The notes beneath the pieces were generated by a model. It was given only the letters and a program-made list of their open reading frames with translations, was not told the DNA's origin and ran no database searches. A program made the position numbers and the translations under genes. This document shows, in pieces, positions 1-63,340 of a stretch of DNA of 64,000 bases. Source of the stretch: an uncultured virus (IMG/VR IMGVR_UViG_3300035395_000183) (Duplodnaviria; Heunggongvirae; Uroviricota; Caudoviricetes); the IMG/VR virus record IMGVR_UViG_3300035395_000183. One strand, given 5' to 3'. Each line of letters starts with the position of its first letter. Within the stretch, counting starts at the first letter, position 1.

Positions 1-3000
1 AAAATCGTTGGAGGTTTAGTCTTTTTACTTAAAGCTTCTTTAGCAGCTTGGTGCCAATCATCAATATTAATTGGTGTATTTGCTAATAAATAATTACTTG
101 GTGATGAAATAACTTGTTTAATTGTGGACGCTGTAAGATTTTTTAATGATTCATTATTATATAAATGTTTTTTATTTTTATTAAAATTGTTTAATATAAC
201 AACAAATCCTTTTAATAACTCTTCATTGCCATTAATTGAAATTCCTGTAGTAATAGGAGGATGATTTTTTTCTGATAATTGTTTAACATTTACATTATTA
301 ATTTTTCGCAAAATTGTATTCAAAACTTTTAATTGTTCTGCTGAAAATTCATTAAATGCTAATGAAGGATTAGCATAAAATTTAATAAAATCCTCTGTTA
401 AATCTAGCCCTCCTTCAACTAATTCTACAATTGTAGCATTTGGTAAAGGTAGTTTTTCTAACTCATGTAATTGTTCAATAGATGAATAATTATCAATAGA
501 TCCTCAGGTATTAAATTGTCCATTACCTGAGAAACTACTTCCTAAAATATATGCTTTATCAATATCAAAGTCAGAACCTTGTAATCAAATTTGTCAGATA
601 GATACATAAGCATCATTTGATTTCGTTTTAAGGTATGCTACATTTTTCATTTCCATAAACGATTGCATAGATTGTGATGGAATACGAGCAGCTACAAATT
701 CATGAGATTTTTCTCAAGAGGCATACATTTTTTTACCTAATTGAGAAATAATACTATTTTTATTTAACAAAAATCATTTATCCTTTATAGATTTATCTCC
801 AATAGAATAACCAGAAAACTTTGAAAACTCCTGTAAAGTTAAACTATTAAAACTAATTCGTCTAGATTTAAATGATGGGGCAGCTACTTTTTCAGTTTTT
901 CTTTCTGCTATTTTTGCAGCTGTTTCTGTATCCTCTACTTCTTCAAACAAATCAAATTTGTTATTCATTAAAGGAATAAAACTTCTAATATTTCCTTTAA
1001 ATGATTTAATTAAATCTTTTAAATTTTGATCAAAATCTTTAACTTTATTAGTATGAGTTTCTTTTCCTAATTTAAATGATGCAACTGCTTTAATATAAAT
1101 AACTTCTTTTCCATTTTCCATCCTTATACTTACATTTTTAGTATCAGGGATTGTATATAGAATCTCTCCTTTTTGATTTCTTCTAACAAAACGTTGATTA
1201 ACTCCATCCTCTTCCATTGGATGTTCTAGAGTAATATTTAAACTATAATCATTTCCAGGAAGATTATCAGTGTATTTAACATATATTGGAGAATCATAAT
1301 TGTTTAAATATAATTTAATATCAGCAACTGTACTATCATCATGAAAATCTTTTTCTAATAATTTCTCAAAATATGCAGAACCTTGCTGTTTAATTTCATA
1401 CATTGAATCCTCAAAGTTACGATTAAATTTAGATTGATAAATATCTCCTAAAATTAATTCAGCTGCATTAAATTTATAATTTGTAATTAATGAACTATTA
1501 GAATCATCATATAATTGTTGCACATCAGAAAATATTGCATTGAAATTATCAGTTTTAAATAAACCTACTTTATTATTAAATTTGGTTGTAATATCAACAG
1601 GATTCATTACTCTATTAGTTTCTAATAACTCTAAGTTTCTTTGAGTCCATTTATTTAATAAAGTGTTTAATAATTTAGCTGTTTCTTCTAATTTAGTAGT
1701 TAAACTAATAAATAAATCAAATCCTGTAAAATCTTTAAAGAAATTAGATAAAATAATATAATCTGTAGATGTTTGATCAATTACTTTTCTATTTTTTAAA
1801 TCATCAATAATTTCATTTAATTTATATCTTAAACGTACAGAATCAAAGTCAAATACATTTTTTTGAATTCCATTAACTACATATGTAATTTCAGAAGGTT
1901 TTAAATCTCTTGGTTTATTTATAATTTTAGTTATTGGTTCACTAGTTTTAGTTCCTTTATATTTATAATATAATCCAGGATTAAATAATGTTTTAATCAT
2001 TACACGATCTACAATTGAATTCATCATGTCCTTACTTTGTTCTGCAGTCATATAATCTCATGCTTCTCCTAATTTTTCTTGCTCAACTTCAATTTCTGCT
2101 TGTAATTCCGGAGTCATTTCTAATTGAATAGTATCTCCTAATTGAATTTTATCTCAAGTAGTAGGTAAAGGTTGTAATAAATTACTAATATAATTAGTAA
2201 TAATATCATCATTTGTTGTTAATCCTAAAGTTTTATCATAGTTATTAAGTGCTTCTTTAGCTAAATCTCCTTGTGTAACAATTCTTGTTGTTCCATCAGC
2301 TTGAGGAATATCATATAATTGAATAATTCCATGTGAAGGAATAAGTACGGCTCCAGTACCTGAATAGTAACGAGTTATAAATTCATTATTCATTCGAGTA
2401 ATTACATCACGTACAAAAGCGACAAAGAAATTTTGATTACTAAATGGAATATTTACATCATCTTTAAATGATTCTACTAATATCTTAGCAATTGTATCTC
2501 CTTTAGAATTAGAAATTGTTTTCACAAACTTATCAGAAAGATACTTGTACAAATCGGAATTATTTATATTTTCAGAATTTGCTAAGTATTTTAGATATGG
2601 ACGCATTGCGTTTTCAATTACATTTGCAATGTTTTGATATGCTTCTAAAGCTAAATAAGATGTAGATGCATTTTGTGCTAATGCCGAAATTACCTGAGTA
2701 ACCTCCTTAATTTGAGACTCATTTGCTTCATGGGTTGCATCTAACTGTGGACCCATCATTCTATTTTCAAATGTAAAATAAGCTAAATTCTTATCATTGG
2801 TTCATGAATCTTTACTATTTACATTAGTTCCTCCAGCTTTTAATGCAGAAAGATTAGAAATAATATGAATCATTTTATCTTTTAAAGAATAGGCTCCACT
2901 GTTATCTTTAGTAGTTATAAGTTTATATAATAAATCATTTGAACCTTCATTAAAATCTCCATGTTCATTTGTAGAATGTTGTGCTCCAAATAGTTTTCAC

Positions 3001-6000
3001 AAATCGAAGAGTGTTTCAAAATTTCCCCTAATAATATTAGGTTCTAATAATCATTGATTGTTAACTTTTTTAGAAACAATCATTTCATAAGAATTATTCT
3101 TTATAGTTAATTTATTAATTTTAAATAAATCTCCTAAATGATTATAATAAAAATCATCTAATGATTGTTCAAAAGAAAATTTTAAATCCTTTATGAGTAT
3201 ACTTCCTAAAACTTGTTTTTGTTTATTATAAAAATTAATATTTGAACGTCTAGAATTTAATATATTTGCATTATTAATTTCACTTTCAGCATCTTTTTTA
3301 ACAACAACTCCATGTTTTGTAATTAATGATCCAAACTGTTTTTTAGTTCCTTCATATCCTTTGGCAGGAAATGAATTATCTAACATTAAGTTATAAATAT
3401 AAGGAATAAAAGTAGAACCATCATGTACGTCTTGTTTATGAGTATCTCCTGATAAATTATACAGCATATCTTGATGATCATCAATTGCAGCCATATTTAC
3501 ATTCTCGGGAATACCCATTGCTGATTTTCTTACAGGAACTTCAATTGTAGCAGTATATAAAACATTACGCTTAGCCATACTAATCATACGACCACTCATT
3601 TCTTTTTCATAATCGACCCAATTTACTTCCTTTGAATCACCTCTATATAATAGATTTTCTTTTAATTTATGAGGATGCATATATTCACCTTTTGCAGAAA
3701 TAAACATATATTCATTTCTCATTAAAGCGTTTAATCACATCCATTTTTTTAAAAGTGGATTAATTCCATTAGCTCCTAATAAATCTCGATAATTAGTTTC
3801 AGTACCTTTTTTTGTAAATTCTTCTTTAGAAATTCCTAATTTCTTAATTATTTCTTCAAACTTTGGACTGCCCGCAAAAGTAATTTCTTTCCCTCCATTA
3901 ACATTCTTATTAAATTCTTTAAACTTATTAATCATGTTTTCTTCCTGCAATTTAACAAATTCCCCAAATAATTTAGGATTATTAAATATCCTAAAGTTAT
4001 CTACAAGTAATTGATTTAATCCATAGATTTGTTTAAATTTACCAGTTGTTTCGTCTTTTATAAAGTATTTAGAATAATGAAGTTCTTCGGTTAAATTAAT
4101 TCCTAATTGAGAAGCTTTTTGAGATAAACTACGCACATTAATTTTATTAAGTGCTTCATTAATTTTTTTAATATTCTCTTCAGGTACCGTTTTCATAGAC
4201 AATTTTATACCTAACAATTTTTCATAATCGTCAAATACTTTAAATAAAGTATCTTTGTAATATGTTTGACCTTGATCTTGTACATATTTTAATATTTTTG
4301 TAACAGGCATTTGAATTAATGGCGTATTTCCATCTAATTTAATTAATCCATTAATAATCTTTGTAAGAATAGTATTTTTATCAGAATAGTTTCCTAACAT
4401 TATAGAAAATCTATTATTGTCTAAAATATTCTGTAAGAAATCAAATTGAAAATCCGATGTAAAGTTTTCAGAAACATTAAATTTAGTTGCACTTTTACCT
4501 CCATCTTCATTTGTTAATTCTAATTTAGTACCAGTTCCAAGAATTACACATGGAAATAAATTATTTTGCGAAGTGTTTTTCTCTAATGAGTATTGTTTTG
4601 TTAAAAGACTTCTAAAAGAAGTATTCTTAGCATTATCTAATTCAAAATTTCTTTGTAATTCAAATAATTCTGAATCTTTTTGAGTTAGTGTTGCAACTTT
4701 AAAAGTGGGAAGTTTTTTATTATCATAAGTAGTAATATTCATTACTGGTTTCATGATATAATTTAATAAATATGCATCAGTTACAGTTTTATAAACTGCA
4801 TCATCTAATATATTTGGCATATATTTCGTAATAGATGCATCTCCTGAGATATTTTTAGTTGTCTCATCATCTAGTGCTTGAATAATACTATGATCTTTAC
4901 CTAATTTATCAGTAAAGCTAATTAATCAATTCTCAAATTCTTTTTTACTTGTTGGTTTTAAAACTTGAATTAATTTGTCAAATCCTAAATATGAAATTTT
5001 AATTCCAGATTTTGATTTTATATAATTAACAATATTTACTTTATCTTTGATATTAATTTTACTTAAATCATTTTCATTAAAAGCATTTAATATATCCGAT
5101 AATTCTTTTTTATAAATTTTTTCTTCAAATCTACTTGATTTAACTAATTTTGATAAATAGTTAAATGTTGTATTTTGTACAGCAATATTATTAAAGTTTT
5201 GACTATACATTTGATTAATAGTATATTCTCCTGTAAAATCATATCGTGAGTAAGAAGCACCAAAGTTATTATTAATAATTTGTGCAAACATTGTAATTAA
5301 TGATTCCTTTGAATTTTTCTCTTTTTCTAAAATATTTAATTTATCAGAATTAATATACTTTTTTAAAGATAATGCAAATTCAAAATTCTTTTGAAATACA
5401 TTTTCAAGAGGACCTATTGCATTTGGCTTATGTTGAATTGCTTTTTCAATTTCATCTAAATATCATAAAAGAACTTCCTTTGGATTTTCATTTAAATATC
5501 TAAACTTTAAAGATTTATCATGTTTTAAATGTACGCCATATATAGTTTCAAAATCACTTATCATAGCTGCAAATAGATAAAAATCTTTCATTTCCATTTG
5601 TATTCCAACATCTTTTCCCTCTTTATTTAAATAAGGAATAGTTGAAACTAACAATTTAACTAATTTACTTTCTGAATTTTCAGAACCTTCATCTTCATGA
5701 CTATCGTTTTGCCAATATTCAGTTTTTAATCCTTGAATTTTTAAAGTATATTTATCTTCTTTATCTATACTACTTCTTAAATTATTAAATAAATTATAGT
5801 TGATATTAATAATTCCGGAAAATTGTTCCGCTAATACTGTGTCAAAATTAGACAGTAATATCCCGGCATTATAAGCATCAAAAATTTCTTCATTACTAAT
5901 TGTATTTAAAGATAAATTAGGAATACCTCGTTTATTCGAGTAAGTCTTAATCAATTTAAATATCTTGCCTGAGAAAAAATACGCATCTAATAGGCCCATA

Positions 6001-6572
6001 ACTCTTTGATAATAAGCATAATCTACAACATCATAGTGACTATTATACAAAGGTTTAACTTCTCCAACTAATACATTATTTTTAATTAAAAATTTCTGAA
6101 TATCTTCAAATAACTCAGATTTTAATTTTGAAATATTATTTGTTATTTCACTATTATTTTGAACAAAGTTTATATCATCTTTACTTCCAATAAAAATAGA
6201 ATTAAGGATTTTTTCAGTAGATATTCTTTCAAAATTTGATCGTACTAATGGTAAAGTATGAAATAGACTTGCTATATTTCCAGAAGAAAAATTCTGAGTA
6301 ATATTACTTTTTGTATGTACTTCTTTTGAATCTAAATCTTTTACAAAACTAGATAATACTAATCCATAGGATTTAAGAACTGTATTAAACTGATTTTTAA
6401 ATTCTTGTGAATTTACAAAGTATGTATCAAGAGAAAAGTCCCCCTCTAATCGGGGGACTTCTTCTTTCACATACAATTCTAAATTCTCTAAATTTCCGTC
6501 TTTGTTTTCGGAAAAATAGTCGTCAATAGCATTTATTATTTGACTGATGTAATCTATATTACATTTACTCAT
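1..6572 (-). CDS. Virion-packaged single-chain two-barrel RNA polymerase (crAss-type), >2190 aa, truncated at window edge
   Basis: Six track ORFs (5463, 4926, 3735, 3051, 2154, 774) share one frame, joined by TGA. Contains QDVHDGSTF, ARIPSQSMQS and the catalytic WLQGSDFDIDKAY (DFDID at 558-572). Frame stays open to position 3. Confidence 0.93.
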
Positions 6573-6587
6573 TGTAGTTTGTATTTA

Positions 6588-9500
6588 TTAACATTTTTTT
6601 AGTAATTCTTGAATATCATTTCTAATAGATTTTAACTGTTTAGCTTCAGTAATTCCTGTAACTTGTTGTATATTATCACGAGTAATTACATTGTTTTCAA
6701 TAGTAAATCCAAAACTATTAATAATGGCTTTTAATTTATTCTTTTCATCTGATTTTATAAAACTTTCAGATTCTAATAAAATCAATGAATCTGCAAAAAT
6801 ATCTTGAACTAAATCCTTTTTTAAATGTAATAAATTAGTTATAGCTGTTTTTATTACATCAGAAGAGTTTTTAAAATTACTTAACATAAAGTTATTAATA
6901 ATTTCTTCAGTAGATATATCAATGATTGGAATATCTTCATCTATAGTGGAAACTACAACTTCTTCAGGAACTATAACTTCTTCTACTTCAGTTTCTTCAG
7001 TTTCTTCAGTTGGAGTTGTTTTAACTACTGGACCTGGAGTATTTTTAATAAGTTGAATAATATTTGATTTTAAAAATTCTTGTAAATCAAATAAAAGTCT
7101 CCCACTTTCAGGAGTAATTCCAATAAAAAACTTATCTCCAAAATTGTCTTCATTTCAACCATTTTCTCCACTAATAAAAGAATTTGCTTGAACTGGACCT
7201 CCAACAACTGCCGCAGGTTTAATTGGAATAGAATAATAGAATTTTTTAGATTTAATATGATTTAATAATTTTTCAATAATTCTAATCATTTCATTTCGAC
7301 CTTCAGAAGCATTAAATTTTTCAAGCAATTCATCAGTAGAAAGATTCTTTGCAACCATTTGTGCCAATTCATTTGTAGCAGCTTCATCAATGATTTTTTC
7401 ATACCCAAATAAATTAAAAAATGTTCAATGCCATCCTTTAATACCCTTTATATTTGCAAGTAATTCTTTCTTTGCATTTATAAAATCAAGTTTACCATCT
7501 TTAGTATGATTTTTAACAGATTTTTTAACTTCTGTTATAACACGACTAAATTCTGAATCTAAGCCTTTATCAGTTTTAAATCTACTAAACACTTCAAATA
7601 CCGATGTGGTATTACCTGATACTTGATTTTCTAAACTAAATTCTATTTTTTTATTAAATAAATCTAATAAAGAACCTCCTTCTGCCTCTCCTGAGTCTTT
7701 AGTTTCTCAAAAGATTAAAGTATCTAAAATATCCGATCTATTTAAAAGAATTTCTGCTTTTGCATTTAAATCGTTGTCAAATACTTGACTTCCTTTTTTA
7801 CCTTCCTTTGAAGCAACACTAATTTTATTAGCTCTTTCGTCTAAAATTTTGTCTACCTCTTTAGTTAAAGTAGTAATACTGCGTTTATTAGAGGTTATCG
7901 GAATTAATTTTGCATGAATAATATTTTCAGAACCTCCATCTAAATCATCTTTAAATGAAACAATAATATATGGTTTATTTTTTAGACCTGAATATGTAGT
8001 TTTCTTTCCTTTTTTATCCTCTTCTGTATATCCATAAAACATTCGACTCATAGTTTCTTCAGAACGTTCTGGCCCAAAAGTATATTTACTTAGTAAATTT
8101 TTAAAATCATTGTAATCATTTGGATAAAATTTGATATTGCTTACATGTAATCCAGGAAATTTTTCTTTTAAAGAAGCTAATGTATGAGGTGATGCAGTTT
8201 CAGGTAACTTTTCTAATCGAGTTCCTGTTATAAAACTTATGCTATTCGGATCTTCAATTTTAAGTTCAATAAAATTATTATCAGACTTTTCTAATTGGCT
8301 TTCTAATTCTATCCATCGTTTTTCAACCTCTTTAATATCAACATTATATTCTTTAGCTTTTTTGGCTATTTCTTCAAGAGTTGCAAAACTAGCTAAGGTA
8401 ATATAATGTATTTTATTTCCATAAGTTAATTTAGCAGAAATATTAATAAATAAATCTCCATTTTTTAAAGTTTTTGTTTTATCAAATCCAATTTTACTAT
8501 GAGTATTATTAATAGTTTCTTTATAAGTAGAAACAGTGATTACTCGTTCAACTTCAATATTCTCAAGTGAAGATGTATTAGGAAAAGCATATTTTATAAA
8601 TTCATCAAATTCATTTGGAAGAATATATTCAACATTTTTATGCAAAAGATGATTTTTTAATTTTCCTCAACCATTTACAACTTCTTTTACTTCATCACCA
8701 GCTAATGATTTACTTACATTTAAATCAAATGGAGTATCACCAGGATTAACAATTAAAGAAGATTTATCATCAGATAATTCAGCTCCTGGATTATTATAAA
8801 AGCTATGAGCCATTATTTTAAATCCATCTTTTAAAGCATCGTTTTCTAATTTATTTTCTTCCGTGGAATTTTTATAAACTGTTCCTTTATCATAAGTTGG
8901 GTCAGGTGTTACATATCGTCCACCAATAACAACTTCTTCACCAAGTTCTTCTTTTTTAGTAATGCCTATTTTTCATTTAAAATTATCATCAGAAGATGGA
9001 GTTGGATTTTCTCCTAATAATTTAACAATATCTTCTATTTTTTGTTTTTTAGCTGTGTCAATTACTGATTTAGTTAAAAATTCAAATGGCACTGAATATG
9101 CATCCATTGGTCCATTTTCAATATGTCATTTTTTCAGTAACTCTTCATTATCAACAATAATTGAAGCAACTTTAGAACGGGATATATAAGTATAAAAAGC
9201 TTTTAAATTGTCTCTAAGTTTGTCGTAAGGTTTTATTAACGATGCATCAAAAATAAAATAATCTACTTCACTTCCTTGAATATTTTCTGGAGTAAAAAAC
9301 TTTACTTTAGACATATCAGATGGAGTAATTATTCCTGTTTCAGTAAATAATTTATTTCAATCTTCAGGAAGTTTACCATTGGAAGTTAATATTCCAAGTG
9401 TTTTAGTAGAATCTTCTTTAAGTTTTGCAGCTATTACAGCAACAGTATCTTTATCTAAAGACGTCATTATTTTATCACCAGTAATAATATTTGATTTTTG

Positions 9501-12500
9501 ATGATATGCTAATAAATTTTCTCGCTTTGTGTTATTTAAATAAGTAAGAGCATCAAGTTTAGCCTTATCATAATCAGGAATTCTATTATCATTTTCCTTA
9601 TCATAAATACTTTCTACTTCACGATTTATTCTTTTATATTTATCATCATTTAGTCTTTTCTGATTATTAGAACTTCTTACACTTAATCATAGTCTTGGAG
9701 TAAATATTGCATTATATGTATTTATATTATATTGAACATATTGATCTCCAATTTTAGCTAAATAACCTAATTGGGTAGTATCACCTGCTCCTATAATTTT
9801 CATAAAATTCAATGAATCATTATTATAGGAATATTCAGAAATCGCATTTAATAAATACATTTCAAAAGCTGAAAAGTGTGTAACCTCATCAATTAATAAT
9901 AAATTTGGAAGATTTTTTAAAATTTCTTCTGGAATTGATTCTAATCATTTTTTATTAGTAATTTGTTCTCCTAATAAAATACTTCCATCATCAAGTTTAA
10001 TATATTTTTTCTCAATCTTATTATCATTAATAGCTGTAATCTCTTTATTAATTTCTGAAATTAATTTAGTAAGTCCTAACTTTTCAAAAATTTCAAATTT
10101 ATTTCCTTTTACTAAAGCAAGCTTTTCATTTCCCGTAGATTCTTTAATAGCTTTTTCTAAATTATTTACTTGAGTATCATCCGGAGCAGAAATTCAAACA
10201 TTAGATATATCGTTAGTTTGTTTAAAATTATCCAATGCTAAACCTAATGTAGCTGATGTTTTTCCAGTACCAGAACCACCTAATAAAATTGTGATAAAAG
10301 AACAATCAAATTTAGACGCATTTTGCTTAGTTTTAAAGATATTAGCAAATAATGTAGGATTAGCTGTACTTGCTTTAATTATTCGAGAGACAAACTCTTG
10401 AGTAAAGAAAGGAGCTTTTGCAAAAGTTCCTGCTATTGATTTATAATTCCTAGCCTGAAAATCAGATGCTTTAGAACTTAAAGTAGTTGCAGCATAAAGT
10501 GCTAATTCTCATGATTTAATTTCTTTTAAATCTTTATCAATTTGTGAGAAGTTATCAGGATTAACATTTGTTAAATGTTTTAAAAATTCTTCTAAAGCTT
10601 CAGCTTCCTTACCTTTATTATGTTCAAAAATTGCTGTCTCAATATCTAAAATTTTCTTTTCATTTGAATTAGATGAATTTATAATTTGATTTAATTTATC
10701 AAGGGGTAAAAATGAAGGATTCATCTTAACTAATCATTGTTTCCAATTAGCTAATAATATTTCATTAACTTTTATTCTAATGATTTCTTGTTCATTAAAC
10801 ATTTTTCCTGCATTGAATGATGCAAGATCTTTTAAAAAATTAATTTTAGTTATTAGAAGATCTAAATCTTTAATCATTAATGTTGCAACATCAGAAGTTA
10901 TAGTTTTTAAATTTATAACGTCATCCTCTTGATTATATTTCTTTGCATAATTAATTCTACTTTGAATATATCCATAAGGATCTCCAAAATCAACTGTTGT
11001 TGTAGACATTGCATAGATAACTGCTTTCATCATTTCTAAATGATTAACAGCCTGATTTAAATCTTGTTCTCTAATATTATCAGATGTAAAATTAGTTACA
11101 TTTGATGATGCTTTTAAATTTGTCTCTTCACGCTTTAATAATTCAAAGATTTTATTAATTTTACTTTCTGGATTTGAGTCCAAAGTTAGTTCAAAATTTC
11201 TAATAAAATCATAAAGACTATTTGATTTTAAATTTAAACCTTTTTTAACTAATTCAAAGAATTTATTTATTTTATCAATATTTTTTTTCTCTAATTTAAC
11301 TAAATTAAGTAAGTCTAATAATGCTCCATTAAATTGCTCTAAATTTAATTTTAAATCAAAGTTATTCTTAATAACATTTAAAAAATCCTGATTTGGAAAG
11401 AGCCCTTTATACATTGCATCTGCTTTGTAGGCTTCTTCTTCCATAGTAATTATATGTTCTAAAGAGTCTGATGATAAATAAATATCTTCAATACCATTAT
11501 TTAATTCCAAATCAATTATTTCATTTATCATTTCAGAAAATCCTACCATTTCTTCCATTGTTTGGATAAAACTGGTATATGATAAACTTTTTGTATTTGG
11601 AAATATTTTAGATATAACCTTTATAATTTCAGTATTAACTAATTCTTCAGCTTCATAAAAAACTTCTTTATCAGCCGTACCGGATTCTAAAGCTTTAACT
11701 AATAAATCTAAAGCATAATTATGAATTTTTAAAATATCGGGCTTTTTCTCATTAATTTCAGCATCACGTTCTTTTTCAATTTCAGTAATTTTTTTATCAA
11801 GATTAATTAAATCTGAATTATTTAAAGTATTAAAACTTTTATTAATTAAATTTGAAGTAAAAGTCATAAACTCTTCTAATGAATCTTGTATTTGTATAAA
11901 TTCTTCTGGCGTTAACGTTTCAGATTGTAATTGCACGATTGCTTTTTCAATAGCCATTTCAGAATTAGGAGAAACTATATTTAGTTCTCTTAAACTTTCA
12001 GTTAAAAATCCTAACTCAGTTAATTTACTTAAAAAATCATTTAGTTCTAATCTATCTAAATCTTTTCATGAATCTTTACCAAATTCTTTTAAGACCGAGT
12101 TAAAATCTCTTACATAAAAATCTTTATTTTGTTGAATTTTTTTGAAAGAATCATATTCTTTTCGTGTAATATTACTATTTGTAAATTCCGTATTAATTTT
12201 CATTTCAAATCCATCAAAAATAACTTTAATGCTATTTATATTTGAGAAATCGTCAATTTTAAAATTAATAAGAGAATTTTCTAGTTCTTGTAATTCTGCA
12301 GTTTGTTCATCAGAAAGTATCGGAAGATTTTGTAATTCAGCAATTTTATCAAATTTCTTTTTATTTAATTCAAGAATTTGAGTGTTTAAATGCGAAATAA
12401 CCATTTCAGCATTCATAGGATTAAAATTATATGATTTAAAGAAATTTGATACTATTCTTTTCATATCATCTTTCGTTGTAATATCACCTTTTTTACTATT

Positions 12501-15500: not shown

Positions 15501-15503
15501 CAT
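6588..15503 (-). CDS. Giant virion cargo/ejection protein (~2971 aa) with SF1 helicase domain
   Basis: Ten in-frame track ORFs joined by TGA, ending TAA at 6588. Motifs: GGSGTGKT (10257-10280), LLIDE, GAGDTTQL, QGSEVD, YTYISRSK. The N-terminal part has VEGIEEVTEQ and Gly-rich hydrophobic segments. Confidence 0.85.
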
Positions 15504-15510
15504 ATTTTTA

Positions 15511-41494: not shown

Positions 41495-41544
41495 TTACAT
41501 AATCATTTACATTGTTTATTTATTTACTATCTATTAATATCATA

Positions 41545-41552: not shown

Positions 41553-41648
41553 GAAAATATTTCTGATATAAAAATTACACATTACTCTTTTTATTAAGTT
41601 TAATAATTTAAAATATTCTAATCTTTCTATTAGAAATATTTTCTACTT
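41548..41648. repeat. Perfect 17-bp inverted repeat with 67-nt spacer
   Basis: aagtagaaaatatttct (41548-41564) and agaaatattttctactt (41632-41648). Confidence 0.85.
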
Positions 41649-41657
41649 ATATATTAA

Positions 41658-42041
41658 TTATACGATTTCTATTGTAATATGATCATCTAATTTTAACATT
41701 GAAAATAATTTATCAAAGGTAATTTTACTATTAATAACTCTTCCTTTTTCTTTATTTTCTCCTACTAAAATACAACCACTTGTATCATCTTTGTCGTTCC
41801 CCGGATGAATTAATATTCCATCAAATCCAGGAACATTTAGTAATCTTGGCAATATTCGTTTAAATCTTGTAGATAAATTTAAAATTACATCATAAGTACC
41901 TGCAGGAATCGCAGTTTCATGTTTGATTTTAACTTCTCTAACTTTATCTTCTAGAGTATCACAAACATAAACTCCATCTACATATAGTTTTCCTATTGTA
42001 TATGTTTCTCCTTTAAAGATTCGTTTAAGTAATAATTTCAT
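41658..42041 (-). CDS. DUF5675-family protein, putative endolysin (127 aa)
   Basis: TIGKLY...CDTLED...AIPAGTY...ILIHPGN...DTSGCILVG signature, next to a holin-like gene. Confidence 0.8.
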   Translation of the reverse strand: MKLLLKRIFKGETYTIGKLYVDGVYVCDTLEDKVREVKIKHETAIPAGTYDVILNLSTRFKRILPRLLNVPGFDGILIHPGNDKDDTSGCILVGENKEKGRVINSKITFDKLFSMLKLDDHITIEIV

Positions 42042-42265
42042 TATTTTTCTATTTGTGATTTAATAATTTCATTTTTATCTGCACTACCTTTACTACTTCC
42101 ATAGAAATAACCATAAACAGCAGAAAAAGCTGCTATTAATGCTCCAACCATTAAGGAAATCGTATTACTATCTCCTTTTTGAATTATTAAAATTGCTAAT
42201 GTAGTAAAATACGCGAGAGTTATAAGTGCTCCCAACACATACATATATATTTCTTTTACTTTCAT
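42041..42265 (-). CDS. Putative holin (two TM helices)
   Basis: Two hydrophobic helices followed by YGYFYGSSKGSADK. TAATG overlap with DUF5675. Confidence 0.7.
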   Translation of the reverse strand: MKVKEIYMYVLGALITLAYFTTLAILIIQKGDSNTISLMVGALIAAFSAVYGYFYGSSKGSADKNEIIKSQIEK

Positions 42266-42266
42266 A

Positions 42267-45038: not shown

Positions 45039-45042
45039 TTTG

Positions 45043-50742: not shown

Positions 50743-51293
50743 TAGTTACTACAATTACAAGGTTTATTAATTATATTACTTTGTCTTACTGTCGGTCCAC
50801 AACTTACAAATAGATTTCAGATAATACTATAAAAATATTTAGCATCATTATATCTTTCTAATCTCATTGCTTCTTGGTGTGCATATAAAATCATATAATT
50901 TCTATCTAAGTTATCATATTGAGTATCAGAAATACAACAATTTGTAAAACTCATAATTAAGTCTAATAGATTAGCATATACAAAATTAATGTTTGAACAT
51001 ACTCCTGTAGCATTTTCAATCGGCGGATCTTCTCCGTTAATTGGTGCGACTCCAAATTCTACTTCATACATTGTAACATCAGGATCGATTGCAGAAGTAG
51101 CAATTCTCATAATTTCTTTAGTGGTAGTTCCTTGTAAAAGTCCGCTTAAATCTAAGGAAGCATCAACTGTTCCTGTAACAGGTTCATATCTAATAACATT
51201 TAATGTATTAAACCTGTAACCTGTTGGACATTCTACACTAAATTCCAAATATTGACTATCTGGAGATACTCTTAATAAGTTTATTTGTATCAT
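50742..51293 (-). CDS. Structural protein downstream of portal (183 aa), Cys-rich C-terminus
   Basis: Track ORF 50817 extended past TGA to ...KPCNCSN-TAA. TAATG overlaps at both ends. Confidence 0.7.
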
Positions 51294-53512
51294 TAATTAT
51301 TTTTTATTTCGTCGTTATTATGATTATCATCTAAAAGTTGTGCAGCTTCTAACTGTACCCTTTTCTTTTCTCATTCTATTTTAGCTTCATCAAACATAAC
51401 CTTATTTTTAGCTGTGTACCAACCAAGTTCTTTGTCAAATGCTAATCTTCCAGCCTCAATTTGTATTTTTTCAGAGTTTAATCTCTCAACTTCTTTCTGT
51501 AATTTCTGAGCTTCTGATTGAGCTTGTTTTAATTGTTTATCAAGCTCTTGTAATTGTTGATTTAATTGTCCAACTTGATTATTTTCTGCTCTTTTCTTAG
51601 TCATTGCAATCCCAACATCAGCTTTCATTTTTGTGAGACCAGTTGCTGTAATAGCTTCTAATATAACTTCAGGATCAACAATTCCACCTTTAATAAATTC
51701 CATTGTAATTTGTTTAATGGTTTCTTGTTCTTTAATTATATCTGCACTATCTGTAATATGAATATCATAATCAGTTGCAGTATAATGTTCAGGGAGAGCG
51801 GTAAATACTTTATTTAATCTTTCTCCAAGAATCAATGTTCCTGTAATACCTTTTTTATATATGGTTTTAGTAAGATTAAGAATATCTAATAACATTTCTC
51901 TTGTCATTAAATCAAGGGTTTGATAAAATTGTTTAGTAATATAAGATGATTGCCTAACTCCAACTTGTACATTACTTACTGCATCTCTTTGTTCTATGCC
52001 TCCAAGCTTTTCTCTGAATACACCAGTTATTGTTGAACAAGCTTCTTCTACTCTTTGAATAGCTAAATCAATTGCTTGAATAGTCTGCAATTTAATAGTA
52101 TCATCAAAACCTCCAAATGTTGTATTCATTGGTGATAAACCTTCTTGTGAAGAATCAATGATAGCTAATCCTTGTTTTTTATAGGCTTTTCATTTCATTA
52201 ATCTTTCTGTTAAATCGGAACCTAATACTTTAGGAAGATACGCTATATCAATTCAATCTCCAACTGTACCTGATTCAGAGATTACATTATCTCTATAGAA
52301 ACAAAGCATATCATATTTATCCTGTAAATTTGCAGTTGCAAGCATTAAAGAATAAGGATCTCCATTTCTATCGCCATAGAATATACCATTAACTGATAAT
52401 GTACATTCATTTGGAGAATCATGATTTCGAGGAACATCTTCTACTTTACCTGTTGGTATATAAATATGTGTTCCAATTCTTATTCCTGAGTATCTGTTTG
52501 TAACAAATGTGCCATCTTCCTTTTCTGTTTTAAGTCACTCAACTTCATAAACAGGATATACTCTAAAATATTTTGAAGTATTTCTTTCAAATGGAAGAAG
52601 TGGTGTTACTTCAAATCCTCCAAGAATACCATCTGACATTGTATTACCTGTTACTGTATCATAACTTCTAAGATATGTTGTAGTTGAACTATCAATACTA
52701 AAATCTTCTAAACTTTCTAATTCGTCTAAATCATCTTTAGTTAAAACTTCACCATATCTAGCAAGAATTTGATCTTTAGTTAAATATTCTCTACATACAC
52801 TTCGCATAGATTTATTTAAATAAACACTTTCAGGATTTCGATCAATAAAAGTATTTACAGGATTAAGAATTTTTAAAGATATATTCTCTTTTGATTGAGA
52901 AGGTAATACTTTATAATAACATGTACCGGTTGCTAATAAATCAATTGCAAGAGTTTTTCTTTGATTTAAAAAATCAATATGTCTAGCTTGTGTTGCATAA
53001 TCTACAATATTTTGTGCTGCTATTTCATAATCTGAAATAAAATTTCTTTCAATTGATTCTTGTAGATTTTGTAATGATAACTCGATTTCTTTATCTTGTA
53101 AAGGTTTTTGAGGTTCTTGTCCTTCTGTTTTATAAATTGCATTATAAATAGAATTATTTAAATGCTTTTTTAACTCAGTAGCTATTTCATTATTTATTTG
53201 GAGTTGTTTATCTCTATGTATATTAGATAAAGTTGATTTATCCTTGCAAGATATTTTCGGAAGTAATGGAATTGATAAGTATTCTCCAATTAATACATCA
53301 ACGTGCTTACGAACCAAAGGTACAAATTCAACAGAAGTAGGAGTTCCAATTCCATAGTTTTCTTCTAAATGCCTAAATTGCTCTGGATCTCTTTTTCCAT
53401 GATAATAATTATAGGCTTTAATGAGTTGGGTCTTTTCATACACCAACTCATTAATAGCTCTATTTATATTATTAATTATATCTTGTTCTTTTTCACTATT
53501 TCTTTGATTCAT
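51293..53512 (-). CDS. Portal protein (~739 aa)
   Basis: ORFs 52535 and 51371 in frame via TGA. Motifs KAYNYYHG, PLVRKHVDVLIGE, ITGVFREKLGGIEQRDAVSNV. Confidence 0.88.
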
Positions 53513-53555: not shown

Positions 53556-54179
53556 TTAAGCATTTCTAACAAAAGTTCAACTTATTGCACCATTTCCTGT
53601 AAGCGATGGTTGAATCCAAGTATGTGTAACGGTTTTTACCTTTCAAATCTTACCACTATCCAACACTTCGTAATTCAACACATACTGCCCCCAATTAGCA
53701 CTAACCCATTGTGGAGGGTTTGCAGGTGGTGTAACAACTACTTCCCAAAGAACACCAACTGTTAATGAAGGGTTCCAAGTTAATTGTGTTTGATGTGGTT
53801 GTATAACATTGTATTTAACACCGTTATAAATACGCTTAGCTCCTATTGCAACTGCTTCCCCTTCTATCCATTGAAGATTTCCTGTATCTTCACGGTAAAA
53901 TGAAAACAATGCAGGTGTTTGCTCAGGTGGGTAAATAGTACGGTTATGTGGTTGAATACAGCAAACTGTTTTATTGTTATAATTGTACATTTTCTTTTCA
54001 ATCCAACCACTATTAGGAAGTGCTGGAAAATATGCAGGCGGAACAGTGTTAAGGGTTGTATGCTTTTCAATCTGTTGCATTGTTTCAACCCTTGCTGTAA
54101 GAAGTTCATCTATTATTATTGCATTGGTACTGTTTTCACGTACTATACAAAATTCATTATTATAAGTTATATCGCTCAT
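53556..54179 (-). CDS. Tandem carbohydrate-binding (CBM5/12-like) protein (207 aa)
   Basis: Trp-rich repeats: WIEGEAVAIG...YNGVKYNVIQPHQTQLTWNP...LW and WVSANWGQY...GKIWKV...TWIQP...SW. Confidence 0.7.
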
Positions 54180-54180
54180 A

Positions 54181-56255: not shown

Positions 56256-56603
56256 TTATAAAAATCCATTGTAATCTGTATAGTTTGGATCACATGTTAC
56301 TGTATCAGTAGATACTTGATCACTTGTTGGTCCTTCTTCATTAACGCTTGGAGTTCTTACTACTTTGTAGAAATAAACTCTCATATAATTTCTTATTCTT
56401 AAATCTTCATAGATATAATTTAAAAATTCATCATCCGTTTCTCAATCTCCAGCTGTTGTAGTTGGAAACATATAACTTGGAATCCCTATTGTTAATTTAT
56501 ATCCTGGATTTAATTTTTCGACTTGTAATCAACCATTATAGCAAGCTTTATATAAGCTCATTATGTAATCACGTATCGCTTGCTCTAATTCTGTTTCTGT
56601 CAT
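56256..56603 (-). CDS. Hypothetical protein downstream of terminase (115 aa)
   Basis: Code-4 ORF MTETELEQAIRDYI... with two TGA. TAATG overlap with terL. Confidence 0.7.
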
Positions 56604-58801
56604 TATTTAGGTTCTTTTAATGCGTTATAAGTTGCTCATTCTTCTTGTGAAAATTTTCTATAATGAGGTGTATTTTCCCAAAATTCAGATTTAGGTTCAT
56701 TATTAATTCATGTTTCATCCCTATTTTTTCTAGTCATATCATTTTTCTCTTCTCTTGTTTGCGGAATTACTCCATAATGTTTGTATCCCTTATTATCAGT
56801 TCATCATCCAATATCTTGGAATTTTTTACCTTGTGGTTCTCTTGCTTCTGGTTTTTTAACTGATAATTCCTCATCTGCTAATTCACACATTCCCATAGCT
56901 GCAACAATATCAAATTTCTTTTTGTCTTCATCAGAGTAGTTTAGTAATTGATCTAATATTTCTCTAAACGATATTGTATAACAATAATCTAAACAAAAAT
57001 CATAGATTAATTCTCTATAATGTTCAATTACTTTAACAGTAGCAGGAGTACCATACATATTTGAATTACCTTTTGAAATATCAGGCATAGTTGCTCTTGG
57101 ACGTTTCATTAATAAAGATAAATATTTATGATCTCTAAAATAAGTAGTAATAGTAGTTCTTGTAGATTCTAAGACAGCTTTCGCATAATAATAAGTAAGT
57201 AGTTTTGCTGCATTTTCATAAGCTTCTCTAGGGTCTCTAGGTCTGTCTTTATACATTGCAACATATTTTGGATCTTGTAATCCTAAAATTCTTTTCTTAA
57301 TAACAATACAAAATTCTGAAGATACAGTTTCATTTGCTTTTTTAGATTGTGCAGAGTCTGTTGCTCCAATATCAATTGAGTCAATTCCTCCAACATATAA
57401 ATTGTTATAATCCGTGCCTTCTTCAGACATTATAGGATGTTCTGCTATTAATATATTTCCATCAGGATCTTCACGTCATTTTACTTTTCCATTCCTCATT
57501 TTAGTATTTTCATCAATTGCTCATGTTAAAAATCCAGCTTTAGGTAATGGAATATCTTTATAAATATCAATATGTGCTAATTGTTCTGCTATTTCCTCGA
57601 CCGGAAATAAATTGTCTGAATGTTGAATTAAAGCCTCTTCAATTGTAAAACAATATTCAGATTTATATTCTAATAAATCTTTTGGTTCATCAATTAATTT
57701 TGATCGTTCTTTTAAATAATATTCTTTAGCTTTTCCAACATTACATCATCCTCGACTATCAATAAGCTCATAAACAATTCTATAAGCAGGAATAAATAAT
57801 CCAGAGATAATATATTTTCCATCTTGAGTAAAATTATGTCTAACAGGTAAAATATTATATGCTTGTGGATTTAAGGTCATTTTCTTTAATCCTTGCATTG
57901 AACTTGCTTTAGAGGAACCTCCAGTTCCAAAAGCAATACGTCGTCCAACTCTTTTACCTCCAAGTACAGAAATTAAAGCTTCGCCTTTAACTCATTTCTT
58001 TAATAAAACTGTATCCGCACCTGCTTCTTCGTAGATTAAAATTTGAGTTCTATCTCCCCTAAGTTTATCAACTTCATCGCAAACAAGTCCTTCAACTTCT
58101 GAACGATGTCCTGATTCACTTCCATCTTTATCTTTTTTAGATGCTCTTTTATGTGTAGCCGTATTTATATTCATGCGAACTCTTCGCAAAGCTCCTTCTG
58201 TGTTTTCATTTAATCAATCCATTTGTAACCAAATCTTACTAAGAGTTGGAGTTAAATGGTTTTTTGAAAAAGCAGAAACAACAGATCTAAAGTTTGGAAT
58301 AGTTGTATATGGTCTTACTATAAATGAAGAAGCCATTTCAGAAAATCCAATACCACGAGATTTTAATACAGATGTATCTTTCTTTAATTTTTCACACATT
58401 TCCAAATAATGAAAATATTCATATTGAAAAACTAAAAATTCTGGAAATCCATAAGTTTGATTTATAGTCTCAAAATCCGAAGATTTAAGATTATAGAAAT
58501 TAAGAAAGAAATAATTATCTCCTGTTATTCTATATCCATTTACAGTATATCCATTATTACATCTATCAATTCTTTCTCTTCATCAATCTACATGAGTCTT
58601 TGAACCTATAGGAATAGACGATGGACTATATCGGCCTGTTTTTAATTTATTAAGAGCGTCTTCTCTAAATCAATTTGGATTAAAATCTAATCCTTGAGTA
58701 TCATTTATTGGTCTAAACCCAGTTAATTCAAAAGATTGTTCAATATCAAAATACTCAATAGGTTGTCCCAAAGGAACATCTCAAGTAAAAGTATTAGCCA
58801 T
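56603..58801 (-). CDS. terL: Terminase large subunit (732 aa)
   Basis: ORFs 58214, 57992 and 56804 in frame via TGA. Walker A VLKSRGIGFSE, Walker B LIYEEAG, FGTGG, nuclease YVGGIDSID and KFDIVAAMG. Confidence 0.93.
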
Positions 58802-58803
58802 AA

Positions 58804-59379
58804 TTAATCAAATATTCCAAGTTCAGTATTTCCTCTAAGCGTACTTTCAGTTTGCATTCCTTTTTTAACTTGATATTCTAACTCTTTAAGAGTTGAGATT
58901 AAATCTCTACAACCTTTAATTTCTGCAATTAAATCTTTGCTTTTAAAAATAGGTTTGCCACTAATGGGATCTCTTTCTTGTAAATCTACATGGTCCAAAT
59001 AAAATATTTGTTTCTCAACTGCTCCCATTGCAGATTTTAATAATCTTAAATCAAGGGACGAGTTTTGTAGTGAATCATATTTTTTACAAGCTGCACGAAA
59101 TAATGGGTCATCAAATTCTGCTTGTGTTAAACGAGAATCTTTTAATGCTTCATTATGTTTATCTTGTTCCGAAAATTGGAAATAAGGACTAGCTCAATCA
59201 AAGAATAAATATATATATTTTAATTCTCTAAAAGCTCTAAGTTTTTGTTTTCCAGTTTTATCAGTAGAAGTTTTATTTCTATCTAAACTTAATAATGCAT
59301 CAAATTCTTCAACTAATAAAAGTCCTTCTTCATCTAAAGATATATTACCATTAACATTATCATATACAAATCATTTCAT
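58804..59379 (-). CDS. Protein upstream of terL, possible terminase small subunit (191 aa)
   Basis: MKWFVYD...AFRELKYIYLFFDWASPY..., in frame with track ORF 58804. Helical, directly upstream of terL. Confidence 0.6.
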
Positions 59380-59381
59380 AT

Positions 59382-59963
59382 TTATTTCTTTTTCTTTAAT
59401 TTACCGCCACATTTACAAGAACAAGTTTCCATAACTTTTCCTCCTGCGGCTTTAGTAAGAATCATATCGCATCCACAAGAACATTTCTTTTTCTTTTTAG
59501 TAGTTCCACCTTTAGCTTTAGTGATAACTGGATTTGATGCAGACTCTGCAACTGTTTCTTTCTTTGTAATTGGTGCTGCTTTCTTAACTAAATTTAATTT
59601 CTTAAGTTTAGCACCTTTAGCTGCAAATTGCGCACTATCTAAAGAATTAGTTTTATGATCTGCAATGTATTGAGTTTGATAAGCTTCTAATTGAGCTAAA
59701 TTTTCTTCAGATAATTGTTTATATTGTTCAACAGCTTTATTAACAGTGTCGTCATCTACTGAAATTGTAGAACTTCATTCTTCTCCTGGTATGGTATCTT
59801 TAAATTTACCATACTTTTCAGGATTTATTTCTTGCGATACTAAGAAGACAAAGAAAGGAAGTAATTCTTTCTTTTTATCTTCTGTAATACTTCCACCTAT
59901 TTGGAATGATTTTAATTTATCATATCCATAAGGATTTTTAAGTTTATTTAATTCTTGTATCAT
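59382..59963 (-). CDS. Basic protein with GG motifs and Cys-rich tail (193 aa)
   Basis: Track ORF 59775 extended past TGA to ...KCSCGC...CSCKCGGKLKKKK-TAA. Confidence 0.68.
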
Positions 59964-59965
59964 AA

Positions 59966-60190
59966 TTATAATTTCTGTAAATCTTTAGTATTATATAAAG
60001 CTTCCTGTAGTTGTCCTTGTGTTGTAAATCATCGACATAAAATTCCTTGAAAAAAATCTCCTCGTAATGATTCTGTCTTAATTGATTTAGTTACTTTTTT
60101 AACTACAATCATTATAGGTTTATTTGGTATATCTTGTCTAATGGTTACTACATCACCAGGAAGAAAAAATTGTTTTAATTCATTTTCCAT
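59966..60190 (-). CDS. DUF2158/YodC-like small protein (74 aa)
   Basis: FLPGDVVTIR...PIMIV...ILCR(W=TGA)F...EALYNTKDL matches the family pattern. Missing from the track. Confidence 0.75.
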
Positions 60191-60191
60191 A

Positions 60192-60731
60192 TTATTCCAT
60201 TTTAAAACGTGCTTTTAATCCTTCATTAATTACTGCTATTATAGATGGCTCTACTGTAACTTTATATCCTTGCTGCATAAATGGAAGAGGATATACTGTA
60301 CGTGTATCATAGAATACATCGTCGCCATTTTTTATATATTTTACTTCAGGTCCAACTTCTATAACTTGTGCACATCCAACAAAGACATCCAATTTATCTT
60401 TTTCACCTGAATCAGGATTATTAAAATCTCCTGTATATTCTACTATAATTTTTCCCTCCATTACTTTTCTGTAAGGATTTAAAGCATAAGGTAAAATAAT
60501 TATCTTTCCTCCCATTGGAATTAGTTCCAAGCGTTCTAGTTTTTCATCAAGTTCTTTTTGTTTCTTCTCTTGTGCTAATAAAAATAATTTATTAGCTTCT
60601 TCAAGTTCTTTCTGCTCTCTTAATTTTTGAGCATCTCTTAGTATTTGATTCTCTGGTAGAAAAATATCCTCGTTGGCTCCTATTCTATTAGCCATATAAA
60701 ATTTCCCTGTTTGTTCTTCTTTTAAACTCAT
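60192..60731 (-). CDS. groES: GroES-like co-chaperonin with N-terminal extension (179 aa)
   Basis: LIPMGGKIII...AQVIEVGPEVKYIKNGDDVFY...IIAVI. Confidence 0.75.
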   Translation of the reverse strand: MSLKEEQTGKFYMANRIGANEDIFLPENQILRDAQKLREQKELEEANKLFLLAQEKKQKELDEKLERLELIPMGGKIIILPYALNPYRKVMEGKIIVEYTGDFNNPDSGEKDKLDVFVGCAQVIEVGPEVKYIKNGDDVFYDTRTVYPLPFMQQGYKVTVEPSIIAVINEGLKARFKME

Positions 60732-60758
60732 AATTCATTATCATTTTTTAATTAATAT

Positions 60759-61031
60759 TTACCACTTTCCTAGTGGACATTCTGTATCTTCTACTCTTGT
60801 TTTTGATCCTAACACGCAGCCACATCCATGTCTAAAACCTGGTTTAGCTGTTTTTGAGATTTCATTTGTTGCTGGATTTAGATATAATGTTGAATTACAT
60901 ACTTCTCCAAATATTTTATCTTTTTTTAACAATTTACATTTATGACAAATGGCTATTCTTTCTTTATACAATTCTTCGTCTTTATTTAAAAGATTTTTGT
61001 ATGTGCCATTAATTATTTGACTGATAGACAT
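60759..61031 (-). CDS. Small Cys-rich zinc-binding protein (90 aa)
   Basis: RIAICHKC...C...GCGC...CPLGKW. Likely start MSISQ at 61031. Confidence 0.72.
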   Translation of the reverse strand: MSISQIINGTYKNLLNKDEELYKERIAICHKCKLLKKDKIFGEVCNSTLYLNPATNEISKTAKPGFRHGCGCVLGSKTRVEDTECPLGKW

Positions 61032-61726
61032 AATATAACTCCTCCTAATATTCCTCCTCCTAACCAATAAGGCCAACGACCTGCTCGTTTTTGAGATTTG
61101 TTTAATTGTTGTATTAATTTCTCATTGGATTGTTTATATATCGTTATAGCATCTTCATTTAGTTTTACAATATCTTTACAGTTTTCGGATACTTCTTTAA
61201 AAATATCAATTTCTAACTGTTGTTTATGTATAATTACTTCATCAATTTTATAAAGGTCTTTATATTTATATAGACTATTTACTTTAAGTCTTAATTTAAT
61301 TACTCCTTCTTTAGTAAATTGATATTTAATAAGTGTGTCATTTTGAGTATCTTTAATAATTGCCCATGTTGGCATTTGTTCTGTTAAAGAGTCAATTGCT
61401 TTTGCGTGGTCTGCTGCACTAGCATCCTTAATTATATTATCTTTTTTAGTTGTTTCAATATAAACAATTTCTTTTGTGCCTTTAACTTCTTTTATTTCTT
61501 TCTCAAGACTATCTACTTGTGATAATAAAATTGTATTTACTATATTAATAGAATCAACTTTTGCTTCATACTTAGCAGCTATCATTTGGTGTTCTACAAT
61601 ATTACTATGTTTATAATCATTTACTCATTTAATAGCCATTCAATAAAATGCTGCCACTACTATCAAACTAGTAATAGCAATTCCTACTCTAAAAAATAAT
61701 TTTTTCTCTTGATTGCTTAAATTCAT
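61013..61726 (-). CDS. Membrane-anchored coiled-coil protein, spanin-like (237 aa)
   Basis: Code 4 adds an N-terminal TM helix (FFRVGIAITSLIVVAAFYWMAIKW) to track ORF 61013. Coiled coil plus C-terminal hydrophobic segment. Confidence 0.55.
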
Positions 61727-62615
61727 TGTGTTCAATTTGTTGTTTATGAAAAGTTAGCATTCTTTCTACTTCAGTTTTTAAATACTCACATTCATAAGTT
61801 GCATTATTTCCATCATGATCATAATGTAATAAAATAAGCGCTTTAATATTGAATCTAGGATCAATCTTTTGAATCATCCATGCGTAAGTAGATAACTGTA
61901 TGCTATAATGCCAAAAATTAGTATCTTGTATATTGTTAAGAGGATACTTCATCATAGAATGTTTTTTAGTTTTTCTATCGAAATATGCTTTCATATCAAT
62001 CTTTTTATTAGTTTTATAGTCTAGAATGTATACATCAAATCCATCTATGATAACTAAATCAGCTTGTCCTGCCAATCTAAGTTTTCCATCAGGTGATATT
62101 CTAGATAAAAGTAATTCAGGATATATTCCACGTCCTGGTTCTATTTTATTTGAAGTCTTGGTAGAAAATGAACCACCTAAACCTAAATGTTGTAATTCTT
62201 TTGTTTTACCAGCAAGATGTTCTAACTCATGCTGTCTATGAATTGCAGTTCCTCTAATACAAGAAGCTTCTCGCTTTTCTCGTCAGTCCTCAAGGATTTC
62301 CTGCTTCCTTGTAGAAAAGGCGTCTAAAGCAACGCCTGTTCTATCAAGGTAAGTTTGGTTGAATTGTTTAAAATTTAACAAATCGGGTTTTACACTTTTA
62401 AAATTATCTTCACCTATTAAACTTTCTAATGCTTTATAGGAAGACCAAAAATCTTCATCAAATACAGTAAACTGATGAATAAGAGTTGTAACCGAAATGC
62501 AGGATTGATTAGATTCTTTAACCCAGTATTTATGGAGTTCATCATTATATTTAACTACTTCATTTTCTTTATCTACTAGGAGTTGATCATAATCAATTAC
62601 ATTTGTCACCATCAT
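61689..62615 (-). CDS. PD-(D/E)xK nuclease, exonuclease-like (308 aa)
   Basis: ORFs 62283 and 61689 joined by TGA. Motifs SVTT, RGTAIH, PELL, AGQADL, DYKT, YSIQLSTYA. Ends TAG. Confidence 0.85.
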
Positions 62616-63340
62616 TTAAATTTTTTCTTTTCTTTTTCTCTTTCATCTATCTCATCATAATTGATCATTGAACCAATTCTTTGTGCTGCCCTACTTACTA
62701 ATGGTAAAATTGCTGGATATTCTAAAATATTATAGGATGATCGGGTTGTTACAATAGCTAAAAATCCAATGGCTTCGTCAACACCCTGAATTGAATAGAA
62801 TAAAACACTTTCAATATCTGCTCGTTCCATTACTTGTTCCAATACTCTGCAATCTGGGGGTATTGGCCCAGTGCGGTCAATAAAAATGAATCCATCTCTT
62901 TCTAACCTTGTTAAAAATGGAGCCACCATTGCAGTATTTAAACGTTCATGTCTTTGACTCATTAAAGGTAATCCTGGAGTTGCAACTTCATTAGTTGCAG
63001 TCATAAACAAAAATGGAAGTCCTACGAGATTTGTAGTTCCGTTAGAAAACTCAAAAATAATTGCTCTATTAGCTTTTGTTTCTTCAGCTAAATTACTAAG
63101 TATTTCCTGCACTTCTTCAGTAAATTGTTTTCTAAGTCTGTTACCATGTTTATGATTAGCTTTTTCTTCTTCTTCTTTTTCAGAAAACTTTCTATCAATA
63201 ATTTTACTTAATACATTCTTAGAAGATAATAAGTAAGCCCCAGCCAGAAGTGGGATCGAACTAACTGATACAAAGGCAAATGCCGCTCAATATCCATGAT
63301 TAACAATAATATAAGTTATTAATTTTAATACATCTGCCAT
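62597..63340 (-). CDS. Single-TM protein with GAF-like domain, T4-holin-T-like (~247 aa)
   Basis: MADVLK...GYWAAFAFVSVSSIPLLAGAYLL (TM), then ANRAIIFEFSNG...GLPF...IGFLAI. Confidence 0.6.

Follow-up and report, generated by a model that had tools for sequence, protein, structure and literature searches.

A late gene block with TGA read as tryptophan in a divergent crAss-like phage

Gene content of the window

The DNA analysed here is a stretch of 64,000 nucleotides, called the window below, from an uncultured virus of the Caudoviricetes (IMG/VR record IMGVR_UViG_3300035395_000183). This report concerns the use of TGA, a stop codon in the standard code (translation table 11), as a tryptophan codon in its late genes. 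The window has a GC content of about 29%, and every convincing open reading frame (ORF) lies on the minus strand, to which all gene coordinates in the window refer. With TGA read as tryptophan (table 4), positions 1..63340 form a late block that is recoded and carries the genes for virion, packaging and cargo proteins. The fragments found under table 11 are fused by table 4 into 41 genes that make up 98.8% of the window; in-frame TGA is present in 30 of them, the totals being 146 TGA against 76 TGG codons.

Four genes of the block match their families only when the full code-4 ORFs are used. The large terminase subunit (TerL; 56603..58801, 732 amino acids) has 13 TGA and 2 TGG codons and matches phrog_6681 (5.7e-63). 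The portal protein (51293..53512, 739 amino acids, 4 TGA) matches phrog_6547 (8.6e-43), the major capsid protein (MCP; 39077..40507, 476 amino acids, 1 TGA and 6 TGG) matches Pfam Crass_capsid (52.7 bits, cut-off 27), and the crassvirus muzzle protein (26750..31033, 1427 amino acids, 15 TGA) matches Pfam crAss_MUZ (83.5 bits, cut-off 27). The first in-frame TGA is codon 7 of TerL, codon 75 of MCP and codon 326 of the portal gene. A DUF192 protein (22701..23282; Pfam DUF192, 9.3e-25) has a single TGA, at codon 53. At the right-hand edge, a TGA-free PhoH-like gene (63515..64000; Pfam PhoH, 8.1e-42), its 5' end cut by the window, is the last standard-code gene before the recoded ones.

TerL was compared with a phage collection, in which 115 records were matched, all at less than 60% identity. 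The best was an unclassified gut phage (44.6%), and the next-best records were crAss-like phages (27–31%). The named hosts of these relatives in the collection's listing (Bacteroides, Flavobacterium and Azobacteroides) are all Bacteroidota, and from this kinship a Bacteroidota host is likely for the present phage. A nucleotide search of the same collection with the window gave no match, and neither did a comparison of MCP, by sequence, with solved structures. The matches to crAss-like families, together with the distant TerL and the lack of a nucleotide match, therefore mark a divergent crAss-like phage, a kinship already recognized in the initial annotation of this DNA. The window represents the greater part of the late genes of a large member of that group.

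Open reading frames under alternative codes

On the minus strand, ORFs of at least 100 amino acids account for 62% of the sequence under table 11; with TGA as sense the figure is 97%. Control recodings with TAG or TAA as sense gave 64% and 68%, and coverage of the plus strand was only 2% to 14% across the codes compared. This difference in coding density favours the TGA-to-Trp reassignment proposed in the initial annotation. Its remark that most minus-strand ORFs stop at TGA under table 11 was also borne out: within 1..63340 this holds for 54 of 80 ORFs of at least 60 amino acids, 38 of 54 of at least 100 and 26 of 37 of at least 150. The rebuilt genes end as it described, with 37 TAA, 3 TAG and no TGA among the 40 stops inside the window, and the eight TAATG overlaps that it listed are all present on the minus strand (17424, 25519, 35017, 50401, 50742, 51293, 55962 and 56603).

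All four motifs that had been quoted carry TGA: F-TGA-M-K in the DUF192 protein, C-R-TGA-F in the ORF at 59966..60190, I-E-TGA-E-I in MCP and I-G-TGA-TGA-T-D in TerL. The name DUF2158 given to the second of these ORFs was not upheld, as Pfam returned nothing for it, whether the site was given as W (E ≤ 0.001) or as X (E ≤ 0.01).

Amino acid encoded by TGA

TerL was translated with X at every TGA, so that the query should not favour Trp, and a database search listed 120 proteins, of which 119 were aligned after exclusion of the phage's own copy. At 11 of the 13 TGA columns no residue was more frequent than Trp (one of the 11 being a tie of 58 Trp and 58 Tyr). Phe led one of the remaining two (88 F, 24 W), and the other consisted nearly entirely of gaps. 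The background frequency of Trp in this alignment is 1.8%. Homologue columns without an enrichment of Trp had been named as the result that would speak against the reassignment; the TerL columns are Trp-rich.

Some of these homologues were possibly called under table 4, and the codons of related IMG/VR loci were therefore examined. The comparison used 16 of 30 related loci, in which TerL reads in one frame. The 14 left out were L001–L003 (the same phage), L009, L021–L024, L026, L027 and L030 (interrupted by stretches with TAA or TAG) and L011, L012 and L015 (length and codon counts the same as in L010 and L014). The 208 cells formed by the 13 TGA columns and 16 relatives hold 47 TGA, 38 TGG, 27 Tyr and 20 Phe codons, 31 others and 45 gaps. 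In-frame TGA was found in all 30 related loci, down to 40–45% identity, and the 22 loci that read in a single frame are without in-frame TAA or TAG. In G009, a complete relative described below, and in several others, TerL is interrupted by insertions that contain TAA or TAG.

All window proteins, again with X at TGA, were also searched by tblastn against 28 related loci, and high-scoring segment pairs (HSPs) were obtained for 17 genes. Of the 490 cells opposite window TGA, W accounts for 125, stop symbols for 107, Y for 79, F for 46, V for 27, P for 20, and G and C for 2 each, with other entries in small numbers; the pattern opposite window TGG is similar (61 W and 22 stop symbols). At the portal TGA sites, 31 HSPs from relatives show a stop symbol (TGA) 35 times and W 24 times. 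In the bacterial DUF192 structures 3m7a and 3pjy, W stands opposite the TGA in both.

The Trp share of residues in the window genes is 1.05% when TGA is counted and 0.36% from TGG alone, against 1.43% in the standard-code block described below. The base following TGA is distributed like that following TGG (p = 0.70), which gives no hint of a special context for read-through. Judged by the homologue columns, the exchange of TGA and TGG among relatives and the DUF192 structures, TGA is a Trp codon in the late block, as first proposed, and an ordinary one that outnumbers TGG there about two to one.

Genome beyond the window

The window was extended with IMG/VR contigs at least 99.9% identical to it in the overlap. 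Three of these (L001, L002 and L003) overlap window 46.6–64 kb and reach 1.5–4.8 kb past its end, and G005 (83,099 bp) overlaps positions 1..13160 and reaches 69.9 kb leftward. With 7.6 kb more of G002 this gave 146.3 kb of working coordinates. CheckV completeness suggests a genome of about 175–185 kb, and one window protein is on record in a contig of 168,911 bp.

The first 59.5 kb of the working coordinates form a replication block on the opposite strand, with coverage that is the same in either code. The stops of its 103 table-11 ORFs are 78 TAA, 12 TAG and 13 TGA, and four of these TGA codons sit in 4-nt overlaps with the following ATG (8282–8285, 20419–20422, 25474–25477 and 38453–38456 in working coordinates). 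TGG occurs 235 times, corresponding to the Trp share of 1.43% given above. A Pfam search, to which 72 of the 103 ORFs were submitted, found DNA polymerase A, DnaB-like and ResIII helicases, Toprim, ribonucleotide reductase, dUTPase, DNA ligase, RNase H and ClpP.

The late block runs from working coordinate 59,513 to window position 63340, about 74 kb, and table 4 is needed throughout. It thus continues about 10.4 kb to the left of the window in a near-identical contig, where ORFs of 2958, 1150 and 1554 amino acids, partly or wholly outside the window, contain 17, 7 and 21 TGA codons. The replication and late blocks converge, and between them (G005 about 59,450..59,513) is a GC-rich hairpin with a T run after it, resembling a terminator that acts in both directions. 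The right-hand early block holds PhoH, small TGA-free genes and divergent small early genes; 3 of its 29 table-11 ORFs end in TGA. By these stop and codon counts the replication and early blocks fit the standard code, with TGA kept as a stop. A layout of two codes in one genome is thus observed in the contigs.

The replication block also contains an array of 14 tRNA genes found with ARAGORN, none with the anticodon UCA, at L038 95..16371 (17 Rfam matches, 15 over the cut-off). Genes for a YqeY-like protein and for a protein of the cREC_REC type (cyclic-phosphate processing receiver) are scattered among them.

Suppressor tRNAs

A tRNA gene of 73 nt with the anticodon UCA lies on the late strand about 6 kb upstream of TerL in L001–L003 (L002 3963..4035). 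L002 4802 corresponds to window position 64000 (99.97% identity), which places the gene about 770–840 bases past the window end. The gene heads the late block and is followed downstream by a 73-amino-acid ORF, PhoH and the first gene with TGA. The tRNA gives a clean cloverleaf fold (acceptor stem of 7 bp, A37-A38, discriminator G73, short variable arm) and scores 63 bits against the Rfam tRNA model. G73 is a mark of bacterial tRNA-Trp. On either side of the gene (L002 3920..4075) are short tandem repeats rich in AT, whose units measure 5 bases upstream and 6 bases downstream.

A homologous tRNA(UCA) was found in G006, 5.4 kb upstream of a TerL gene whose product is 63% identical and which has 11 TGA codons. 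Its acceptor stem carries compensatory changes, with pairing and G73 kept. A search of viral contigs for a version of this tRNA with the anticodon CCA returned four stretches, all with UCA.

A second tRNA(UCA) gene, at L035 3850..3925 on that locus's minus strand, belongs to the divergent early block of G002 and is about 8.5 kb past the window end. It is 76 nt long and 58% GC in a phage of 29% GC; position 37 is G, the discriminator is C and the D stem is weak, and the Rfam score is 37.9 bits.

TGA-poor genes and giant ORFs

The use of TGA within the window is uneven. Five genes at 40526..47064, including DUF5675 and a 923-amino-acid beta-helix tail protein, form an island with no TGA and 17 TGG codons. 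Its two large tail genes have 0 TGA among 16 Trp codons (P = 3.6e-8 at the block-wide TGA share). Other TGA-poor genes are MCP, with 1 of 7 Trp codons TGA (P = 0.008), and the gene at 53556..54179, with 2 of 9 (P = 0.01). The GC content at third codon positions (GC3) of window genes is about 0.1; that of the island equals its neighbours', and GC3 does not separate the island, MCP or 53556..54179 from the other genes. The beta-helix protein had no match in the phage collection and just two partial homologues in the protein database.

The left part of the window (3..22331) is filled by large ORFs from the ORF list, without Pfam or PHROG family: the part at 3..6572 of the 2958-amino-acid ORF mentioned above, 6588..15503 (2971 amino acids, 22 TGA), 15511..17424 (637 amino acids) and 17424..22331 (1635 amino acids, 19 TGA). 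Together with G005 59513..69939 they form a run of 1554, 1150, 2958, 2971, 637 and 1635 amino acids. Presumably these are the cargo or ejected proteins and the virion RNA polymerase of crAss-type phages. Further Pfam matches among the code-4 window genes were to DUF5675, beta-helix, cadherin-domain and PD-(D/E)XK nuclease families.

Discussion

We consider, with a probability of about 0.88, that the late block of this phage reads TGA as Trp, that the flanking blocks use the standard code, and that a suppressor tRNA(UCA) allows the late proteins to be completed. Being in the standard code, the replication and early genes can be read unaided by the host ribosome and would be translated first. 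The tRNA(UCA) would then be made, be charged with Trp, presumably by the host tryptophanyl-tRNA synthetase (TrpRS), and outcompete release factor 2 (RF2). Decoding of TGA as Trp would allow the terminase, portal, capsid, muzzle, giant cargo proteins and lysin to be finished; without suppression TerL, MCP and the portal protein would terminate at codons 7, 75 and 326. The initial annotation had argued that the late genes can be translated only after a switch of code, and the early TGA codons of these three genes and the tRNA(UCA) at the head of the block agree with it. A scan for sigma-70 promoters at 59000..64000 gave 30 sites against 28.6 expected, a number close to chance.

Several observations weigh against this account. 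No tRNA was found in the window itself, and both the standard-code blocks and the tRNA genes come from near-identical contigs, not from the window's own record. No TGA occurs in 11 of the 41 window genes, including the 6.5-kb island. TGA-bearing genes also lie inside the replication block, namely endonucleases of the GIY-YIG (5 TGA), PD-(D/E)XK (2) and HNH (3) types, the glucosaminidase that is its last gene (2) and the ResIII helicase (TGA at codon 14). The relative G009, a complete genome of 176,910 bp that has terminal repeats, employs TGA in the replication block too (73 TGA against 212 TGG), and ARAGORN found 8 tRNAs in it, none of them tRNA(UCA); the early/late rule therefore holds in the present phage and not across the clade. 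Finally, the 17–22 TGA codons of a giant ORF would have to be read efficiently against RF2. Such numbers require reassignment to be almost complete: were each codon read through 90% of the time, only about 10% of chains would get past 22 of them. The RF-1 (PF00472) and class Ib synthetase (PF00579) domains were not found in the three contigs of this phage (G002, G004 and G005), with some 23 kb or more of the genome lying outside these contigs, nor in four relatives that are 93–100% complete and one partial relative; the controls for these searches matched in 10 and 14 of 14 genomes.

The three recoded endonucleases, of homing type, lie amid the tRNA genes (L038 9893..10549, 11921..12316 and 14053..14490) and contain no TGG. 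The glucosaminidase, probably a lysin, at L040 18741..19451 likewise uses TGA and no TGG.

Recoding was called phage-wide in the initial annotation. That wording does not hold, given the TGA-free genes of the window and the replication block, with its use of TGG and 13 ORFs ending in TGA; recoded throughout the late block is the better description. The same annotation had pointed to the rest of the genome as the place for a tRNA-Trp(UCA), a release factor or an aminoacyl-tRNA synthetase. The tRNA(UCA) is there, and RF-1 and TrpRS domains were not found in the contigs examined.

The lack of a phage RF1 or TrpRS, set beside 17–22 TGA codons per giant ORF, might be taken to mean that the phage silences RF2 in an undescribed way and that the TGA-free island is a code-neutral cassette. 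We regard this as a doubtful proposal. If it were true, the cassette could be made before the code switch, or be swapped between phages with different codes.

Less probable still is a host that uses table 4 natively, like Mollicutes and some reduced symbionts, so that the phage simply matches its code and no switch takes place. The low GC of about 29% and GC3 of about 0.1 are like those of table-4 organisms, and G009, with TGA in both blocks and no tRNA(UCA) found, would fit such a host. The replication block argues otherwise: it has 235 TGG codons, and TGA ends 13 of its 103 ORFs, several overlapping the next ATG by 4 nt, whereas at a GC3 of about 0.1 a table-4 host would let TGA spread into it. 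The phage moreover has its own tRNA(UCA), and the named hosts of its TerL relatives are all Bacteroidota.

Another meaning of TGA, such as Gly (table 25, known from phages of Gracilibacteria and Absconditabacteria), Cys, Arg or selenocysteine, is very improbable. ARAGORN by default labels a UCA anticodon tRNA-SeC, the isotype of a suppressor is not fixed by its sequence alone, and the second tRNA(UCA) departs from the usual form in its G37 and C discriminator. Opposite TGA, however, the 490 cells hold 2 G, 2 C and no R, with W, TGA, Y and F making up 357, and Gly is not among the six commonest residues listed at any of the 13 TerL columns. The late-strand tRNA, with 73 nt and a short variable arm, is unlike tRNA-Sec, and the TGA sites number 146 in 30 genes. 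On these comparisons none of Gly, Cys, Arg and selenocysteine can be what the codon generally encodes. That TGA is a true stop and the genes are decayed, mis-assembled or leakily read through has nothing in its favour except the table-11 reading itself and hardly deserves consideration, since the same codons recur in independent contigs at 99.9% identity, related TerL loci carry in-frame TGA in 30 of 30 cases with no TAA or TAG in the 22 single-frame loci, TGA falls at conserved aromatic columns, and leaky read-through is unable to give ORFs with 22 TGA.

Reading of TGA as Trp in the late block, with a suppressor tRNA, has counterparts in published phages. Yutin et al. (2021; PMC7886860) reported 243 crAss-like phages in which TGA stands for Trp or TAG for Gln, chiefly in late genes, and also suppressor tRNAs. 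The present phage resembles them in the in-frame TGA of TerL, MCP and portal, in the confinement mostly to late genes and in the suppressor tRNA. The Zeta group described in the same paper has genomes of 145–192 kb rich in introns and inteins, and TerL genes of relatives are interrupted by such elements (PMC7886860), as is also seen here in L009, L021–L024, L026, L027 and L030. The present lineage is distant from phage records already deposited, with a best TerL identity of 44.6% and no nucleotide match.

The Zeta phage Lera reads TGA as Trp mainly in the structural block and TerL and has a tRNA-SUP(TCA) (PMC12386605). Its block of tRNA genes at one genome end, its tRNA-SUP(TCA) and its recoded lysin are matched here; in Lera the holin is recoded too (PMC12386605). 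Lera differs in carrying an unused amber suppressor as well, and in its recoded RNA polymerase and helicase (PMC12386605). In contrast to Lera, the present phage has two tRNA(UCA) genes, and no tRNA(CUA) was found in the 146 kb seen.

Borges et al. (bioRxiv 10.1101/2021.08.26.457843) described an early/late layout of recoding in Agate, Jade and other phages, proposed that it times late-gene expression and lysis, and found recoded homing endonucleases and lysis genes within standard-code regions. A recoded homing endonuclease in an early region, and low GC with rare TGA stops, are shared with the present phage (bioRxiv 10.1101/2021.08.26.457843). Jade phages carry a code-change module of tRNA, TrpRS and RF1 (bioRxiv 10.1101/2021.08.26.457843), in contrast to the contigs searched here, in which no RF-1 or TrpRS domain was found.

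In every feature tested the phage fits the published recoding of late genes in crAss-like phages; the mechanism is not new, and the lineage is. No new question is raised, and how RF2 is overcome is a point common to the published cases. For annotation the consequence is practical, as table 11 fragments the late block, and TerL, the portal and the giant proteins are lost. The layout is notable for a sharp division of the genome between two codes, with the suppressor tRNA heading the late block. For the biology of the group, a divergent and very large crAss-like lineage is added to the known cases of recoding.

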